Sequence record: PZ445432.1
Length of the DNA stretch: 64,000 nt
Direction: 5' to 3' (one strand)
Origin: a phage
Part shown: positions 45,432-63,642 of the stretch, in pieces
Numbering within the stretch: position 1 is the first letter of the stretch
Layout: every line of letters starts with the position of its first letter
The notes under the pieces: generated by a model
Told to the model about the DNA's origin: nothing
Databases searched by the model: none
Seen by the model: only the letters and a program-made list of their open reading frames with translations
Made by a program: the position numbers and the translations under genes

Positions 45432-48195
45432 CTAGCTCTGACATTGCTTCTTCTGCCATAGCCTTCTCTTCCTCTGTCATGAATTTGAAAGGAATTGGCA
45501 TACACTCGATTTTACAATAGGTTCTGTACCAGTCTACGATATTCTCCGTGTTCATATCTTTACCAATACCCATCATACCAAGATACATTCTAGCATATTT
45601 TGGGTTAGCACTCTGGCCTGTTTTAAGGAAGAAATCCTTTTTCTTACCTTTTAGAGCTTCTATGAATGGTTTAATGGTTACATTTGAACACTTCTTAATG
45701 TCTTCCCAGAACATCTCGTGCATCTTATGAAAGAATGCAGCTCGATCATTTGGTTTATCTTTGATATATTGTTCAACATGCTCAACTGTTACATCTTTAA
45801 TAGACTCAAGATGATAATAGCGAACAATAAGTAGTTTAGCTTCATACGCATCAGCATGACGTGGAGCACAATAATCCGGAGTTGAATGTAGAATAGCTTT
45901 GATTCGCTCTTCTGTGTACTCTTTACCAGCACCTTCAATAGTTCCCCAGCTTTCACTGAAAATATCAATAGTTGCACCCTGATCAAGCAAGTAATAACGT
46001 AAAGTACTAGTATAGTTCCTAGATTCCAGCTCCCTGCGACGTGCGTATAATTGCTGTGCTAACTCCAGCCAACCCTCATCAATGTTATACTGTTCAGAAC
46101 CTGCGGAGAATCCACTCGTAGATTTATCAATAAAATAATAAATGTTCTGAGCGCCACGGTCGCGCCTGATTGCTTGGAAACGCATGTTTGGCGCTTGATT
46201 ACTGGTTCTAGTAATAACAAATACGTTATCAAAATAGTTGAAGTCAACTCCACTCGTTACGGATGGACTACATAATAAGCAATCAATTTGTTGATCAATT
46301 AGCTCATTAGTTGTGTAATCCAGAATACGTCTAATATCCACATCTGATGTGGAGTTTGAGTGGATTTCCTTAACTAACGCACCAGTATTACGACGTAGTG
46401 CCATGCCCTTCTCATTCAGCTCATCAGGGCCACAATCAGATACTAGAATAGATTTCTCACCCATCTCTAGAGAAGTCTGAAGTGCAACCCAAATACTGGA
46501 TTCATCGGGGAACTCATAAGCGTGAGCTTTTGACAGCATTTTACGGTGATGATTATAAAATGCTACTGGTTTATCGAACTCAATCAAAGAACCATATGCT
46601 TCAATTGTTTCAGCACTAATATCACCATCGGATAGTATAATGATTTTTGCAGTTGCAAGAATATCACGAAGAACCTGAATACACTCGCGACGTTGCTTAA
46701 CAACTGGGGCGAATAATAGGTCATTCATTACTGCATCACATTCATCGATAAAGATTGCATCAATTTGACCAATAAAACTCTTAAACTTATGTAAAGAGTG
46801 GATAGTTGTGGACATACGGTCAATAGCACCACGCTTAAAATTAAGCATATCTACAGACTTATCATATTGTCCTGCACTAAATTTCTTGGCATTTGAAGAC
46901 ACCAGTGCCCTAGTATTGGTAATTGCTAAGAAATTACCTTTAATAACTCCTGAATCTAACCAACGCACAACTGCCGTGGTTTTACCTGTACCTAGACTTG
47001 CTTTTACAAAAGTCATATAACCTTCTGGTGGTACAGTGTTTAATTTCAAGAAGTTATCAGTTTCTAGAGAATTAGTTTCTAATTTTTTAAGTGGAACACC
47101 TTTTAATACTTCTGGGATCTCACGCTTAGAGTTATTAACAAAGGCTTTTAATGCCTGTTTTCGACCGTTATTAAAATAATCTTGAATATTACGACTATTA
47201 TCTTTAGTTGCAATATACTCAGATAAAGCTGGGCGGATCTCCTTCTCTAGCCAACCAAAATCTACACCATCCTCTAACGCTCGGTGATATAGCTTTGGAA
47301 TAATACGTAGATATACACCATCCTCAGCCTCTTCTAACTCGCTAATGGTTTCTTCTACTTTATCAGAAGCAATCTTTTTGCCTTTAATTTGATCGAGTAA
47401 AGAGTAGAATTCCTCTTTAAACTCCCCTCTAGTTGTTTCATAGTCAACCAGATTATTAGGTAAATTTACTTTAGAACCCTTAACAAATACCAGACGTGAA
47501 GCACCCTCCGCTTTAAACGGATCAACTATACCATCAGTAAATAAAGGATCTGCAAAGTAATGGAGCTGTACGGAAGAGTAATAAGCTAAGTCGGCAATAT
47601 CAAAGCCATACTTTTGTCTACTACTTTCATTGATAGATGTAAATAAGAACTTGATCTGACCCTGTGTAACTTTAACATTAGATTCTAGTATTAAGTGCAT
47701 TCGGATACCTGGTTTTAGTCCAGCCGAAGACGATGCATGAGCAATAAACCCTGCATCAAGAGGAAACATATCCTCACTAATACTATTCAACATTCTAATA
47801 ATATGACGCGCCATGCCAACAAGATCAAACTTGTTACAACCTCCTGTATCTACAATACCATCCACGTCCATTGCAATTATATGACTTGGGTTAGATACAT
47901 TAAAGTTGTCCTTCTTACGCCGCACATTATTTTTAGGTGCAAGACATCGACCTCGTACCGCAACGATATGGGGGTCAGACGTTAAACGTCTCATAAGAGG
48001 GAGCATTTCTACTAGGGTTTGAGGATCAACTTCATCAATTACATCAAACTTGAAGGGCATTGAAGCTGGTTTACCTTCAGGATGCTTTGAGGAAAATCTT
48101 TTAGCAAAAAGATAATCTTCTGCTTTAACTTCTCGCCAATTGCCCGTGGCTAAATCGCGATGAAATCCTGCATGACCTTGTAGGATTGAGAACAC
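45406..48195 (-). CDS. replication origin-binding protein-like SF2 helicase (herpesvirus UL9-type)
   Basis: Walker A GTGKTT, Walker B DECD and downstream helicase motifs; start placed at GTG 48195 (GGAG 8 nt upstream); the ORF is open to 48393 but that extra N-terminal stretch is hydrophobic and has no RBS. Confidence 0.7.
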   Translation of the reverse strand: MFSILQGHAGFHRDLATGNWREVKAEDYLFAKRFSSKHPEGKPASMPFKFDVIDEVDPQTLVEMLPLMRRLTSDPHIVAVRGRCLAPKNNVRRKKDNFNVSNPSHIIAMDVDGIVDTGGCNKFDLVGMARHIIRMLNSISEDMFPLDAGFIAHASSSAGLKPGIRMHLILESNVKVTQGQIKFLFTSINESSRQKYGFDIADLAYYSSVQLHYFADPLFTDGIVDPFKAEGASRLVFVKGSKVNLPNNLVDYETTRGEFKEEFYSLLDQIKGKKIASDKVEETISELEEAEDGVYLRIIPKLYHRALEDGVDFGWLEKEIRPALSEYIATKDNSRNIQDYFNNGRKQALKAFVNNSKREIPEVLKGVPLKKLETNSLETDNFLKLNTVPPEGYMTFVKASLGTGKTTAVVRWLDSGVIKGNFLAITNTRALVSSNAKKFSAGQYDKSVDMLNFKRGAIDRMSTTIHSLHKFKSFIGQIDAIFIDECDAVMNDLLFAPVVKQRRECIQVLRDILATAKIIILSDGDISAETIEAYGSLIEFDKPVAFYNHHRKMLSKAHAYEFPDESSIWVALQTSLEMGEKSILVSDCGPDELNEKGMALRRNTGALVKEIHSNSTSDVDIRRILDYTTNELIDQQIDCLLCSPSVTSGVDFNYFDNVFVITRTSNQAPNMRFQAIRRDRGAQNIYYFIDKSTSGFSAGSEQYNIDEGWLELAQQLYARRRELESRNYTSTLRYYLLDQGATIDIFSESWGTIEGAGKEYTEERIKAILHSTPDYCAPRHADAYEAKLLIVRYYHLESIKDVTVEHVEQYIKDKPNDRAAFFHKMHEMFWEDIKKCSNVTIKPFIEALKGKKKDFFLKTGQSANPKYARMYLGMMGIGKDMNTENIVDWYRTYCKIECMPIPFKFMTEEEKAMAEEAMSELGARNDSEE

Positions 48196-48896: not shown

Positions 48897-49091
48897 TTAG
48901 ACACTTAAAATACTTCTAATCTCTTCTATATACTTATCTACTTTTTTAGCATCTATTTTACTTAGTTTTCCTATATCAAAATCAGGATCAGTCAAATATC
49001 TTGCCATAAATTTTACTTGTTTAGCTGAAAGTTGACCCTTATTCCACTTTTTAATTTTACCATAACATACCCAATATTCTTTATTCATCAT
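48897..49091 (-). CDS. hypothetical small Lys-rich protein
   Basis: 64-aa ORF. Confidence 0.35.
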   Translation of the reverse strand: MMNKEYWVCYGKIKKWNKGQLSAKQVKFMARYLTDPDFDIGKLSKIDAKKVDKYIEEIRSILSV

Positions 49092-49473
49092 TTAGTCCCG
49101 AAACATAAATCCCAACACGGTTTAATTGTTCTTTGGCTTCTTTGAGAATATCTGGAGTGTACTCCCAAATATCATCTTCCACCTGTAAAAGATGGGGCGA
49201 ACAACCGTCATCGGGCACACGACATATGGCCAAACCACGTGGATGGAACAAAGAGAAATTTAGTGCAACAATTAAACCCATAGCAGACAACTCATTCCAA
49301 TCCAATTCCCATTCCCTAGCGTAGCCTGATAGGAAAACACCAATACAGGGATCGTCTATTTGCTGCTCCGGAAAAGTAAAGGAGGCTTGTCTTACCCCCA
49401 ACCAACGTTGTAGCAGCTTCTCCGCACGCTTCACCAAACTAGGATCAATCTGACGCCAATATACTTGTTCCAT
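49081..49473 (-). CDS. hypothetical protein, paralog A of a tandem pair
   Basis: shares DDPCIG...W.EL..MGL..ALN..LF.P core with the adjacent ORF. Confidence 0.55.
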   Translation of the reverse strand: MEQVYWRQIDPSLVKRAEKLLQRWLGVRQASFTFPEQQIDDPCIGVFLSGYAREWELDWNELSAMGLIVALNFSLFHPRGLAICRVPDDGCSPHLLQVEDDIWEYTPDILKEAKEQLNRVGIYVSGLNDE

Positions 49474-49482
49474 TGTGCCACC

Positions 49483-49911
49483 TTAGGCAGTTAAACCAGG
49501 AATTTGATAACCAAAACGACGAAGTTTCTGGATACCATCATTTACTTCTTCCGGTGAGTAAGACCAACCGTAATGTTCATCAACTTGAAAGCCAGGAGAT
49601 TCACTGGTTTTATAGTTAACAACAATACGGTGTTTATTGGGCATAAATAGCTTATAGTTTAATGCAAAAACCAACCCCATTTCATCCAGCTCTTTCCAGC
49701 CGACAATCTCTTCCAGACCATCCTCTACCTGCACAACTAGACCAATACACGGGGCCTCATCAATATCATCTTTAAAAGCAAAGGAGATTTCATTATTTTC
49801 ACACCATATTTTCAAGGAGTTAATAGTCTCATTATACAGGCTAGCTGGGAGAGTACGCCAGAAGTTAACCAAAATTGGATTAGCTTCTTTAGAGAATACA
49901 TTATTGAACAT
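49483..49911 (-). CDS. hypothetical protein, paralog B of a tandem pair
   Basis: shares EAPCIG...WKELDEMGLVFALNYKLFMP core with the adjacent ORF. Confidence 0.55.
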   Translation of the reverse strand: MFNNVFSKEANPILVNFWRTLPASLYNETINSLKIWCENNEISFAFKDDIDEAPCIGLVVQVEDGLEEIVGWKELDEMGLVFALNYKLFMPNKHRIVVNYKTSESPGFQVDEHYGWSYSPEEVNDGIQKLRRFGYQIPGLTA

Positions 49912-49913
49912 AT

Positions 49914-50420
49914 TTACACCTTAAGTTGTTGTAGGGCTTTACACATTTCAAGATCTGGACTAAATTCTAGCATATAGCTAACAGCCATTAAATCTTGAAG
50001 GTTTATTCCAGTTCTACCGTTGACTATAACCGTTGGATACTGGTACATCATAGCACCAGCGTCATCCAGCACACACCAATGTTTGAGCTTATGCTTTTCA
50101 ACGAAGCGAAGAACAGAATTACCCCTAGATAGCCCACCACCAGTAAAATCCGTTGTACCAAGAAAACGATCAATAAGATCTAATCTGGTCATAATCTGAA
50201 CGTTCTCCATCTCATTCCTGACAGAGAACCATGAAGATACCCCAACAATCATTATTGGAGAAGGACGAATAAAGTCCTGAAAAGCCTTGAGAAGCGGCTT
50301 AAAAACCCAGTCACTTCCAAAGAAAATCTTTTCATCATCAGGTGCATGATGGTGGGAGATGCTCGAATTAAGCACCCCATCGATGTCTAGAAAAATAATT
50401 GGAGTATTACTTATTTCCAT
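49914..50420 (-). CDS. HAD-superfamily phosphatase-like protein
   Basis: FLDIDGVLN matches HAD motif I (DxDGV); downstream Ser, Lys and VLDDA fit motifs II-IV. Confidence 0.6.
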   Translation of the reverse strand: MEISNTPIIFLDIDGVLNSSISHHHAPDDEKIFFGSDWVFKPLLKAFQDFIRPSPIMIVGVSSWFSVRNEMENVQIMTRLDLIDRFLGTTDFTGGGLSRGNSVLRFVEKHKLKHWCVLDDAGAMMYQYPTVIVNGRTGINLQDLMAVSYMLEFSPDLEMCKALQQLKV

Positions 50421-50589
50421 TTCTGTTCCTTTCTAAGAACGTATCATACTCAACCGTATCAACATATATGACACCATAGTCATCGGATTTATAGTCCATT
50501 TCCCATAGCTCACATCGATAGCACCAACTACCATCCGCCCATACAAATATATCATCGGGATGTGTATACACAGATTTAACTATGGACAT
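50407..50589 (-). CDS. hypothetical small protein
   Basis: 60-aa ORF. Confidence 0.35.
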   Translation of the reverse strand: MSIVKSVYTHPDDIFVWADGSWCYRCELWEMDYKSDDYGVIYVDTVEYDTFLERNRNGNK

Positions 50590-51404
50590 ATTTGTTTTCC
50601 CGGCATATAAGGTCTACCCTCTAGATGAGCTTCTACACGAGCAATAAAACCAGGATCACTGAAAGCATCTACTGCACCTTTACTCCAGTAAGGAATACCA
50701 CGATCTTCCAGTTGGTACATATCACTACGAGTCATACCTTGATAGCCTGGTTTCGACGCTAGGGCACTATCATAGTAGTTAACTACCATAAGTTTCGCAG
50801 CAGTCCGATTAAGAACAGGGAATAGTTCCCAGTAGAAGTTAATTACTTGGTTAGAGCAACCAACTACAACGATCATATCTTGACTGGTAATACCATCAAA
50901 AATATTGTACATTTCTGCGTACGCTGGAGCATGCTCACCAAAAAAGATTACATTAGGTTTAACCCATTTATAATCATCTGGGTCAATAGAGTTATACCCA
51001 ACATCAATAACCCGTTTATTACTACTATTGTAGCTATCAGCTACAACAACCTCTTTTAAATATCCGTGAATGTGCAGAATATCACTATGTGGAACGCCAG
51101 CACGCTCAATAAGGTCATCAACGTTGGTAGTCAAGTTTACTACTTGACCCGGATATTTCTTATACCATTCACCAATACGCAAGTGTGCAAGATTAGGTTC
51201 AACAGTTTCTAACTCTTCACGCCGCTTGTTGTAAAACATATGGGTTTTATGATAAAAGTTACCACGAAAGGCGTGAATATTACATACTTCTTCTAGATCA
51301 TAATCATCCCACAGTGCTTTACCACTAGCAGTATCGGTACGAAAAGCTCGTACACCACTTTCAACGCTCAAACCTGCACCGCTAATAATAATTAATCTAC
51401 GCAC
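50580..51404 (-). CDS. Sir2-family (sirtuin-like) protein lacking the zinc-ribbon cysteines
   Basis: ISGAGLSVESGVRAFR (GAGISxxSGIPxFR), TTNVDDLIERAG (TQNIDxLHxxAG) and ILHIHG (catalytic His) motifs; no CxxC pairs. Confidence 0.7.
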   Translation of the reverse strand: MRRLIIISGAGLSVESGVRAFRTDTASGKALWDDYDLEEVCNIHAFRGNFYHKTHMFYNKRREELETVEPNLAHLRIGEWYKKYPGQVVNLTTNVDDLIERAGVPHSDILHIHGYLKEVVVADSYNSSNKRVIDVGYNSIDPDDYKWVKPNVIFFGEHAPAYAEMYNIFDGITSQDMIVVVGCSNQVINFYWELFPVLNRTAAKLMVVNYYDSALASKPGYQGMTRSDMYQLEDRGIPYWSKGAVDAFSDPGFIARVEAHLEGRPYMPGKQICP

Positions 51405-61208: not shown

Positions 61209-61490
61209 ATGATTTCAGCCAAAGAAGCTCAAGAACTTGCAGGATTAACAGAAGTACCCGCATTCCTAAAGTTTATAGAAGAAAAGATTGTAGAAGCTGC
61301 TAAGTCTGGAAATACAGAAGTAATTATTCGAGATAATCCTTACGCTAGGTGGCTATATAATCCTAGAGAAATGCCAGGAGCAGCTAAATCGGTACTAAAA
61401 ACCTTATCGGATAAGGGGTATCACCTCTCACAATACTACCGAGAAGCCGCCTTTGTAGACATGGGTCTTAAAATTAGTTGGGAGGTATAA
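61209..61490 (+). CDS. hypothetical protein
   Basis: 93-aa ORF with GGAGG RBS. Confidence 0.5.
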   Translation: MISAKEAQELAGLTEVPAFLKFIEEKIVEAAKSGNTEVIIRDNPYARWLYNPREMPGAAKSVLKTLSDKGYHLSQYYREAAFVDMGLKISWEV

Positions 61491-61966
61491 TGTCGGTTTT
61501 CCACATTTACACAGATGGTGCTTGTAAGTCTAACCCAGGTCCAGGTGCTTGGGGTTTTATTGTCTATAATGATAACGACGATCGTTTAGGTTCTAAATCT
61601 GGTTATAATCCTAAAACTACAAATAATGAGATGGAACTCACAGCTATTGTAGAAGCTCTACGTTGGTCTGTTAAAAAAGATAATAGACCAATTGCTATCT
61701 ATACTGATTCTGCTTATTGCAAAAATGGCATGGAAAGTTGGATGTTTTCTTGGCAAAGGAAAGGCTGGAAGAAAGCAGATGGTGAAGTTCCCCTTAATCT
61801 AGAACTTTGGCAGGAAGCATTTAAATTAACACAGCAGTATATCAACTTTCATAATATTAACCCTACTTTTATTAAGGTTAAAGGACATTCTGGTATTAGT
61901 GGTAATGAAGCTGTAGACGCCTTATGTAACACAGTTATTACTGAGCAAGAACTTGCCGAGATGTGA
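61490..61966 (+). CDS. rnh: ribonuclease H
   Basis: HIYTDGACKSNPGPGAWGF N-terminal RNase H motif and downstream conserved acidic residues; ATG overlaps the upstream stop. Confidence 0.8.
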   Translation: MSVFHIYTDGACKSNPGPGAWGFIVYNDNDDRLGSKSGYNPKTTNNEMELTAIVEALRWSVKKDNRPIAIYTDSAYCKNGMESWMFSWQRKGWKKADGEVPLNLELWQEAFKLTQQYINFHNINPTFIKVKGHSGISGNEAVDALCNTVITEQELAEM

Positions 61967-61986: not shown

Positions 61987-62015
61987 TTGCTTAAAGCCCT
62001 CTAATTTAGTATAAT
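61987..62015 (+). promoter_or_regulatory. early promoter TTGCTT-17-TATAAT
   Basis: hexamers read on the plus strand. Confidence 0.6.
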
Positions 62016-62042: not shown

Positions 62043-62327
62043 ATGAGAATTTATAACTCAAATTCATTAGGATTTAAACCATTGAGAAAACGTGCACAAT
62101 CACCTCGTCAAATAAGAAAGGCTAATATTGGTGAACCAGAAACACGTCTTCCACCTCCTCCAGAACAACGTTTAGTTTATCTGGACGAAGAATTAGCGGA
62201 ACGCGAAAGAAAAGCTCAAGAAGAGATTAAGCATAAGAAAATGTGTACTGCTCCAGCCTACTCCAAAGGGGCTTATCAATATATCTATACAGCCGAGGAG
62301 GCTAAAGATGCGGGGCGTAAAAAATGA
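62043..62327 (+). CDS. hypothetical basic protein
   Basis: 94-aa ORF with GAGGAGGG RBS. Confidence 0.5.
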   Translation: MRIYNSNSLGFKPLRKRAQSPRQIRKANIGEPETRLPPPPEQRLVYLDEELAERERKAQEEIKHKKMCTAPAYSKGAYQYIYTAEEAKDAGRKK

Positions 62328-62773
62328 AGATTACTGAATTTAAAGGTACTTATAGTTTTTTATCTAACTTTTATTTATCACCAATTACTTTCGAATATCT
62401 AAATGAGATATGGCATGCTGATACTGTAGAACATGCTTTTCAGGCTATGAAATCCGACCAAAAAGATGATGTAGCTCATGTGCTGCGCTCCCTAAATGCA
62501 GGAGTTGCCAAACGTAGAGGACGTAAATTAACTCTGCGCTCTGACTGGGATAAGGTAAAAGATGATGTAATGTTAGAGCTTTTACGGTTAAAGTTTGCAA
62601 TCCCTGATTTGAGGGACAAACTGTTAGCAACAAAAAATGCAACTTTGATCGAAGGAAATACCTGGGGAGATACATACTGGGGTGTTTGCCGAGGCATCGG
62701 GGATAATACTTTAGGAGTTCTTTTGATGCAGGTAAGGTCTGAAATTAAAAGAAGTTTACAGTTAATAAATTAA
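62324..62773 (+). CDS. NADAR-domain protein (YbiA-like)
   Basis: FLSNFY...VEHAFQAMK...RSDWDKVKDDVMLELLRLKF...W...GDNTLGVLLMQVR matches the NADAR/YbiA pattern along its length. Confidence 0.8.
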   Translation: MKITEFKGTYSFLSNFYLSPITFEYLNEIWHADTVEHAFQAMKSDQKDDVAHVLRSLNAGVAKRRGRKLTLRSDWDKVKDDVMLELLRLKFAIPDLRDKLLATKNATLIEGNTWGDTYWGVCRGIGDNTLGVLLMQVRSEIKRSLQLIN

Positions 62774-62781
62774 AAATTCAT

Positions 62782-62810
62782 TTGCTAAACGCTTCAAATT
62801 CTAGTATAAT
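62782..62810 (+). promoter_or_regulatory. early promoter TTGCTA-17-TATAAT
   Basis: hexamers read on the plus strand; followed by AAAAAGGAAAATAAATAATG. Confidence 0.65.
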
Positions 62811-62848: not shown

Positions 62849-63364
62849 ATGGCTAAGCAGAAAAACGCAAAAACTCAAGCAGCAACTACAGTTAAAACTT
62901 TCCCTCAGACTGAGGCTAACCGCAAAGCTCGTCTGGAACGCCACCTGCGCAAGCATCCTACTGATGCTCAAGCTGCACAGGCACTGAATCGTCCGGCTCC
63001 GATTCGTCAAAAGCCGAAGGCTAAGAATGCTACTCGTTCTGTAACCCGCCTTGTGACCTATGTACAGGGTTATGGCCACAAATCTGTTCCAGTAACACTG
63101 AGTTTCAATGCTGGAGCTGAATTGTTCCCTCGTAATGGCATGGCCATGAAAGATTACGAGAAAGCAGTTAACCAGAAACGCAAGCCAACGGCAGATGTGC
63201 TTCGTGACACTCATGGACAGTTTGGCTCTGTTAAGCCAAATATCTTTGGCGTAGAGTATAGTAAAGATAGTGTTCGTGCTCTGTGTTACGGTGTAGGCAT
63301 TAAGTTCACTGGTGATTCTGCTCGTAAATCTGCTAAACCAGCTCGTAAACGTAAAGCGAAGTAA
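62849..63364 (+). CDS. highly basic protein of unknown function
   Basis: 171 aa; Lys/Arg-rich N- and C-terminal tails; high-expression codon usage; own promoter and terminator. Confidence 0.65.
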   Translation: MAKQKNAKTQAATTVKTFPQTEANRKARLERHLRKHPTDAQAAQALNRPAPIRQKPKAKNATRSVTRLVTYVQGYGHKSVPVTLSFNAGAELFPRNGMAMKDYEKAVNQKRKPTADVLRDTHGQFGSVKPNIFGVEYSKDSVRALCYGVGIKFTGDSARKSAKPARKRKAK

Positions 63365-63371
63365 TAGATAG

Positions 63372-63397
63372 GAGGGGCGAAAGCCCCTCATATTTTG
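63372..63397 (+). terminator. rho-independent terminator (gaggggc-gaaa-gcccctc)
   Basis: 7-bp GC-rich stem with GAAA loop followed by ATATTTT. Confidence 0.5.
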
Positions 63398-63405
63398 GAG
63401 AAACT

Positions 63406-63642
63406 ATGCGTAATTTTGTAGTAAAGAATGATTTTAACCGTGCTAGCACCCATAAGTCCGCTAGAGATTATACACGACTTTCTAGTCATGAGGTAATGGA
63501 TACCTGTTATGAAGAGCTGGAAGATAACTGGAATGAATGGCCAGACTTTTCTATGGAAGAAAACTGGGATGTTAGTGAAGATATGCTTCCTGGTTTTAAA
63601 GACCCCAAGAAGTGGGAGTCTATTAAAGAGACAGCTCTTTAA
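63406..63642 (+). CDS. small acidic Trp-rich protein
   Basis: 78-aa ORF; C-terminal half dominated by Asp/Glu with interspersed Trp. Confidence 0.5.
   Translation: MRNFVVKNDFNRASTHKSARDYTRLSSHEVMDTCYEELEDNWNEWPDFSMEENWDVSEDMLPGFKDPKKWESIKETAL

Follow-up and report, generated by a model that had tools for sequence, protein, structure and literature searches.

The gene bas33_0070 of the T5-like phage Bas33 encodes a free-standing ("orphan") protein of the NADAR family, and this enzyme very probably strips ADP-ribose from guanine in phage DNA and in this way cancels the toxin DarT1. The anti-DarT1 role of the gene is already known and is not new. The NADAR protein of Bas32 and Bas33 has been named AdfN-Bas32, and its function has been published (Johannesman et al. 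2025, Nat Commun 16:1598, PMC11825919), so the first-pass annotation, which had proposed a plausible anti-DarTG counter-defence from the letters of the DNA, is supported and restates what is known. Its value is one of confirmation and not of discovery: a sequence-only reading recovered a counter-defence gene that had been deposited as "hypothetical protein". Family identity, predicted fold and conserved active site were established in this study, and neutralization of DarT1 has been published for the 99%-identical protein of Bas32. What is added here is the difference between the two alleles, the anatomy of the cassette and its promoters, and the idea of a wider substrate range.

All positions refer to the window, that is, the whole stretch of 64,000 nucleotides of phage DNA that was analysed. 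The 1.5-kb stretch around the open reading frame is 100% identical to MZ501074.1 (Escherichia phage HildyBeyeler, Bas33), a T5-like Tequintavirus of the Demerecviridae from the BASEL collection, and a window position equals the MZ501074.1 position minus 482. The reading frame corresponds exactly to the CDS bas33_0070, runs from ATG to TAA and encodes 149 aa (17.2 kDa, pI 9.0). The earlier claim that it follows the NADAR pattern along its length was borne out by the profile HMM of Pfam NADAR (PF08719, DUF1768), which matched with 79 bits (E=6.3e-22) against a gathering cut-off of 35.1 bits and covered residues 9-142 of the protein and positions 9-163 of the 163 in the profile. The protein also matches phrog_1017 in PHROGs (8.4e-45). 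The PADLOC scan gave only a weak and uninformative match to the candidate family PDC-M42C (6.2e-7), and the antisense ORFs within the gene (62445-62675 and 62476-62697, minus strand) were without support. The names given to orthologues are inconsistent and include "swarming motility protein (YbiA)", "GTP cyclohydrolase II", "riboflavin biosynthesis protein", "N-glycosidase" and "hypothetical protein"; the label "NADAR family protein" is used in only a few related phage records. About 96 T5-like phage records could be re-annotated accordingly. The features of the locus are listed in the table.

Table. Features of the NADAR locus of Bas33 and of related loci (window coordinates unless another locus is given)
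Feature	Position	Strand	Description	Basis
DUF7415 genes	49081-49473, 49483-49911		two paralogous proteins, adjoining the HAD_SAK_2 and Sir2 genes	
HAD_SAK_2 gene	49914-50420	-	HAD_SAK_2 protein	PF18143, 1.2e-20
Sir2 gene	50580-51404	-	Sir2-family NAD-dependent protein	PF02146, 1.5e-24
phrog_5321 gene	61209-61490	+	93 aa, between thy and rnh	
Promoter of the orf94-NADAR pair	61987-62015	+	putative T5-type sigma-70 early promoter: TTGCTT, 17-nt spacer, TATAAT	read from sequence
bas33_0069 (orf94)	62043-62327	+	94 aa, T5.090 homologue, phrog_4593, first cistron	phrog_4593, E=8.8e-53
Shine-Dalgarno-like site	62310-62315	+	weak candidate GCGGGG, inside orf94, 8-13 nt before the NADAR ATG	sequence only
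bas33_0070 (QXV80081.1)	62324-62773	+	NADAR-domain ADP-ribosylglycohydrolase gene	Pfam NADAR, AF2 fold, active-site residues
Key residues of the bas33_0070 protein	E36, K43, W75, K79, E110, D116, W119		invariant or nearly so	50-sequence alignment
Next promoter	62782-62810	+	T5 P-H 207 homologue: TTGCTA, 17-nt spacer, TATAAT	scan, 10/12 matches
DUF7022 gene	62849-63364	+	full-length domain	1.6e-75
Hairpin	63372-63389		7 bp, GC-rich, ends the DUF7022 gene	terminator score on both strands
phrog_4586 gene	63406-63642	+	78 aa	
phrog_5321 gene of Bas32	L002:810-1091		present, unannotated	
Bas32 NADAR allele	L002:1925-2374		in MZ501075.1	
UTK0009 NADAR allele	L004:2489-2938		slot differs from that in Bas33	

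The AlphaFold2 model of the protein, built from an alignment of 50 homologues, reached a mean pLDDT of 97.9 and a pTM of 0.91, and it predicts a YbiA-like alpha-helical core with small flanking beta-sheets. In a Foldseek search of the PDB with this model, the only significant matches were E. coli YbiA (2b3w; E=2.3e-9, TMq 0.82, 37% identity in the structural alignment) and the ADP-ribose-bound NADAR of Phytophthora nicotianae (8bau; E=2.8e-6, TMq 0.76). In the 50-sequence alignment, whose clade members are only 48-59% identical to the Bas33 protein, E36, K43, E110, D116, W119 and N128 are invariant and W75 is nearly so. HMMER alignments to YbiA and 8bau place E36/K43/W75/E110/D116/W119 on E43/K50/W89/E125/D130/W133 of the P. 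nicotianae enzyme, residues which contact the distal ribose or the pyrophosphate or are required for guanine de-ADP-ribosylation (Schuller et al. 2023, PMC11543638). The NADAR active-site set is thus retained, with the Glu and Lys of the E-x6-K motif, the distal-ribose Glu, and the pyrophosphate-binding Trp and Asp. Invariance of these residues across such a divergent clade argues for retained catalysis.

DarT1 links ADP-ribose to the amino group of guanine, and NADARs hydrolyse this link (PMC11543638; Cihlova et al. 2024, PMC11125620). For AdfN-Bas32, the main text of PMC11825919 reports ectopic-expression assays only. The plasmid-expressed protein neutralized DarT1 toxicity in E. coli with no phage present, and it brought RB69, T5 and Bas25 back to full titre on DarTG1 hosts (PMC11825919). 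Because a protein identical at 147 of 149 positions defeats DarT1 and rescues three DarTG1-sensitive phages, the counter-defence reading of the Bas33 gene is well founded. The term "anti-DarTG" needs to be narrowed: it is right for DarTG1, but AdfN-Bas32 gave T5 no help against the thymidine-modifying DarTG2 (PMC11825919).

The Bas32 and Bas33 NADAR proteins are called identical in PMC11825919, a statement which disagrees with the GenBank records. The two proteins (MZ501074.1 and MZ501075.1, both 149 aa) differ by T9A and K104E, at positions that are variable in the 50-sequence alignment, and a functional difference between the Bas33 allele and the tested Bas32 allele is therefore unlikely, as judged from the alignment. 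The genes differ at 14 nucleotides; 12 of the altered codons are synonymous and 2 are non-synonymous, which points to a functional gene under purifying selection.

The arrangement of the gene suggests how it may be expressed. The putative promoter behind rnh carries the A-rich upstream element AAATTAAAAATTCA and is nearly identical to the promoter annotated between rnh and T5.090 in T5 (NC_005859); a simple promoter scan missed it because its TTGCTT agrees with TTGACA at only 3/6 positions. It is the sole promoter for the orf94-NADAR pair. The ATG of the NADAR gene overlaps the TGA stop of bas33_0069 (ATGA, 62324-62327), no terminator-like site was found by sequence scan between the two genes, and the overlap together with the GCGGGG motif suggests translational coupling. 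This layout makes it most likely that orf94 and the NADAR gene form an early bicistronic unit, in which the NADAR gene comes second and is coupled to orf94 in translation. The P-H 207 homologue, nearly identical to the T5 region annotated "promoter P-H 207", lies 3' of the NADAR stop, where it marks the 3' end of the cassette and would drive the DUF7022 gene. The first-pass annotation had described a string of small promoter-equipped accessory genes downstream of rnh. That description is sound for the location and the neighbours, as rnh ends at 61966 and the neighbouring genes are flanked by T5-type promoters, but it does not apply to the NADAR gene, which has no promoter of its own.

The bas33_0069 protein is 89% identical to T5.090, with the divergence confined to the last ~12 codons, and it has no match in Pfam, NCBIfam or PADLOC. 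The idea that it serves the NADAR protein as a specialized partner was rejected: T5 carries the gene without any NADAR, so it is not a NADAR-specific partner, and in the Epseptimavirus UTK0009 the NADAR gene follows rnh and precedes the orf94 homologue. Further downstream, the DUF7022 protein is named "virion structural protein" in one relative despite its location in the early region. The first ~17-70 residues of the 78-aa phrog_4586 protein recur in several other phrogs, among them a segment of the phrog_255 exonuclease family (profile positions 75-147, 3.6e-8), so that these proteins may have an N-terminal module in common.

Comparison with T5 shows the NADAR gene as a discrete insertion. 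The window segment 62290-62830 was compared with positions 45985-46411 of NC_005859 (L003:5986-6412, minus strand); T5 lacks exactly the NADAR gene, a cassette of ~450 bp, and has the order rnh, promoter, T5.090, P-H 207, T5.089. The indel between T5 and Bas33 has its left breakpoint within the final ~12 codons of orf94 and its right one in the A-rich element upstream of P-H 207. As similar AAATTAAAAATTCA elements stand upstream of both flanking promoters, these repeats could serve as recombination microhomology for cassette exchange. T5 is strongly restricted by DarTG1 (PMC11825919), and the presence or absence of the gene therefore fits the phenotype.

In the phage collection, a NADAR copy with at least 95% protein identity was found in 96 records, and the surrounding locus was matched in 433; about one-fifth of the T5-like records carry NADAR, with RefSeq/GenBank duplicates counted. 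Salmonella phage vB_SenS_UTK0009 (Epseptimavirus) has a 60%-identical NADAR gene, located 4 nt after rnh and before the orf94 homologue. Since this allele occupies another slot, NADAR is a mobile accessory cassette that is independent of orf94, and it must have entered or moved within the hotspot more than once. The gene has a GC content of 36.7% and a GC3 of 29%, like rnh and orf94, and thus gives no sign of recent acquisition from a compositionally foreign source. A close homologue (P0014) lies on a 168-kb contig with phage-like genes (dCMP deaminase, Thg1, KTI12), a context which fits a largely phage-borne clade.

Several further observations concern the same region and its relatives. The hotspot has received a further accessory insertion, the phrog_5321 gene; in T5, the gap between thy and rnh is only ~130 nt and holds no annotated gene. 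The record OR847649.1, "Listeria phage LM 4-11-1" (2,093 bp), has 93% DNA identity to the T5-like NADAR locus and appears to be a T5-like fragment that was mislabelled or arose by contamination, and OR848924.1, "Listeria phage LM 4-14-1" (3,109 bp), encodes a 37%-identical NADAR. Elsewhere in the window, the phage also encodes a Sir2-family protein, with a HAD_SAK_2 protein nearby. Only SIR2, HAD_SAK_2 and DUF7415 domains were found there, and no macrodomain or other ADP-ribose eraser was detected near the Sir2 gene.

Taken together, we suggest the following course of events. Early in infection, a host sigma-70 promoter would drive transcription of the 94-aa gene and, with it, of bas33_0070 as the second cistron. 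When DarT1, the toxin of the abortive-infection system DarTG1, puts ADP-ribose on guanine in phage DNA, the enzyme would cleave the N-glycosidic bond between ADP-ribose and the N2 amino group of guanine, and removal of the ADP-ribose would let phage replication proceed. Phages carrying the gene are therefore expected to escape DarTG1. We infer from the Bas32 protein and from the active-site residues that the Bas33 protein itself performs this guanine de-ADP-ribosylation; early expression and translational coupling are predicted from the layout of the locus, and the same role would presumably be played during a real Bas33 infection.

A point against this reading is that the nearest characterized relative by sequence is YbiA, a metabolic enzyme which does not rescue DarT1 toxicity in cells (PMC11125620). 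Among PDB chains, the protein matches YbiA best by sequence: the single sequence gives 2.8e-15, and the clade profile gives 3.1e-37, compared with 5.3e-19 for 8bau. It might be supposed that bas33_0070 is an auxiliary metabolic gene for a YbiA-like metabolite-repair N-glycosidase acting on riboflavin intermediates, with the anti-DarT1 effect as a side activity of over-expression. YbiA is the best solved-structure match, many related phage records bear riboflavin or YbiA names, and the riboflavin-intermediate N-glycosidase equivalog TIGR02464 of NCBIfam gives 66.8 bits. However, this score is under the curated cut-off of 73.7, and no riboflavin genes are annotated beside bas33_0070 or in the inspected annotated stretches. 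AdfN-Bas32 rescues where YbiA fails, with phages at full titre (PMC11825919), and the presence/absence pattern of the cassette in T5-like phages is the one expected of counter-defence and not of core metabolism. We consider the metabolic explanation highly improbable. We give equally little credence to non-catalytic binding or blocking of DarT1. Such a mode of action, abrogation of DarT by direct interaction, has been proposed for the antitoxin mimic AdfB of phage ICP1, and the main text of PMC11825919 describes no catalytic mutant of AdfN-Bas32. Nevertheless, all the active-site residues are invariant in a clade of 48-59% identity, the protein is without the N-terminal extension of the DarT1-associated NADARs, and the authors state that AdfN proteins need enzymatic activity, although this was demonstrated for the T4 protein (PMC11825919).

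A third explanation is compatible with removal of ADP-ribose from guanine and extends it. By analogy with YbiA, the enzyme might be a broad nucleic-acid de-ADP-ribosylase that acts on cytidine-ADPr as well as guanine-ADPr, in DNA and RNA, for which DarT1 is only one natural opponent and possibly a minor one; it would then also counter other ADP-ribosyltransferase toxins (pierisin/ScARP-like, YarT-like or undiscovered). The clade profile is far closer to YbiA than to the generic NADAR 8bau, and E110 corresponds to the glutamate that defines the YbiA subfamily; this YbiA-type residue and the proximity to YbiA make a wider substrate range possible. Cytidine-ADPr in DNA and RNA is reported to be a substrate for NADARs of the YbiA type and for generic ones, but not for DarG1s or the T4 NADAR (Toxins 2026, PMC12945103), and a toxin-independent enzymatic reversal has been proposed by Johannesman et al. 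(PMC11825919). The known in vivo phenotype is limited to DarT1, though, with DarT2 unaffected (PMC11825919), and we regard the broad activity as rather unlikely. If it were true, the eraser would shield T5-like phages from several ADP-ribosyltransferase defences besides DarTG1, and its broad range would help to explain why AdfN-Bas32, unlike the T4 protein, acts without any phage cofactor.

For guanine de-ADP-ribosylation, which we prefer, the practical consequence is that the presence or absence of the ~450-bp cassette should predict the plating of T5-like phages on E. coli and Salmonella carrying DarTG1. The prediction extends to T5-like phages that are candidates for therapy.

Compared with the known NADARs, the Bas33 protein combines features of several groups. 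DarG1, of the BC4488 subfamily, has the same fold and reverses the guanine ADP-ribosylation by DarT1 in cells, as AdfN-Bas32 very probably does. DarG1 has a basic N-terminal beta1-beta2-alpha1 extension and a catalytic Asp (Schuller et al. 2023), whereas the Bas33 protein has neither and carries Glu110 instead. Membership of the DarG1/BC4488 group was rejected on the grounds that there is no adjacent DarT, that the domain match starts at residue 9, that the model comprises the core only, and that the residue is Glu and not Asp. The clade profile search returned no DarG1-type PDB chain at E<=0.01. The neighbours of bas33_0070 are rnh and the genes for the phrog_4593 and DUF7022 proteins, with no DarT next to it according to Pfam and PADLOC, and no DarT occurs among the inspected annotated products of MZ501074.1. 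A NADAR that is phage-encoded and has no adjacent cognate DarT is what characterizes the AdfN class, and bas33_0070 has this organization.

The founding phage anti-DarTG1 NADAR is AdfN-T4 (gp30.3 of T4). It shares with the Bas33 protein the superfamily, the logic of an orphan antitoxin and the guanine-ADPr target of DarT1, but the two show no BLASTP similarity (E=1.2) and only ~19% identity in a MAFFT alignment. The AdfN-T4 clade has been published as having His in place of the conserved Glu, which the Bas33 protein retains as E110. Based on these two differences, the Bas33 protein was not assigned to the AdfN-T4 clade, and PMC11825919 also places it outside. The two enzymes behave differently as well: AdfN-T4 fails to neutralize DarT1 outside T-even infection, whereas AdfN-Bas32 succeeds (PMC11825919).

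YbiA (2b3w) provides the closest solved structure, and its E-x6-K motif and subfamily-defining Glu are common to the bas33_0070 protein. E110 aligns with the glutamate of the LVE/LYE motif of YbiA and 8bau (E125 in P. nicotianae) and is invariant in the clade. Their cores are comparable in size, and in the phage protein nothing extends past the core. The genetic contexts differ, since YbiA belongs to a LexA-controlled operon (PMC11125620) and bas33_0070 to what appears to be an early accessory cassette of a phage. On the sequence evidence, the bas33_0070 protein appears to be a Glu-type NADAR near YbiA. According to Johannesman et al., the nearest relatives of AdfN-Bas32 are two archaeal NADARs, and it does not belong to the YbiA group (PMC11825919), so the YbiA-proximal placement obtained here from the PDB and NCBIfam scores differs slightly from their wording. 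The closest counterpart of all is AdfN-Bas32 itself: a sister phage carries this same gene at the corresponding locus, its protein differs from that of Bas33 only by the two substitutions at non-conserved positions, and the paper that describes it names Bas33 explicitly (PMC11825919).
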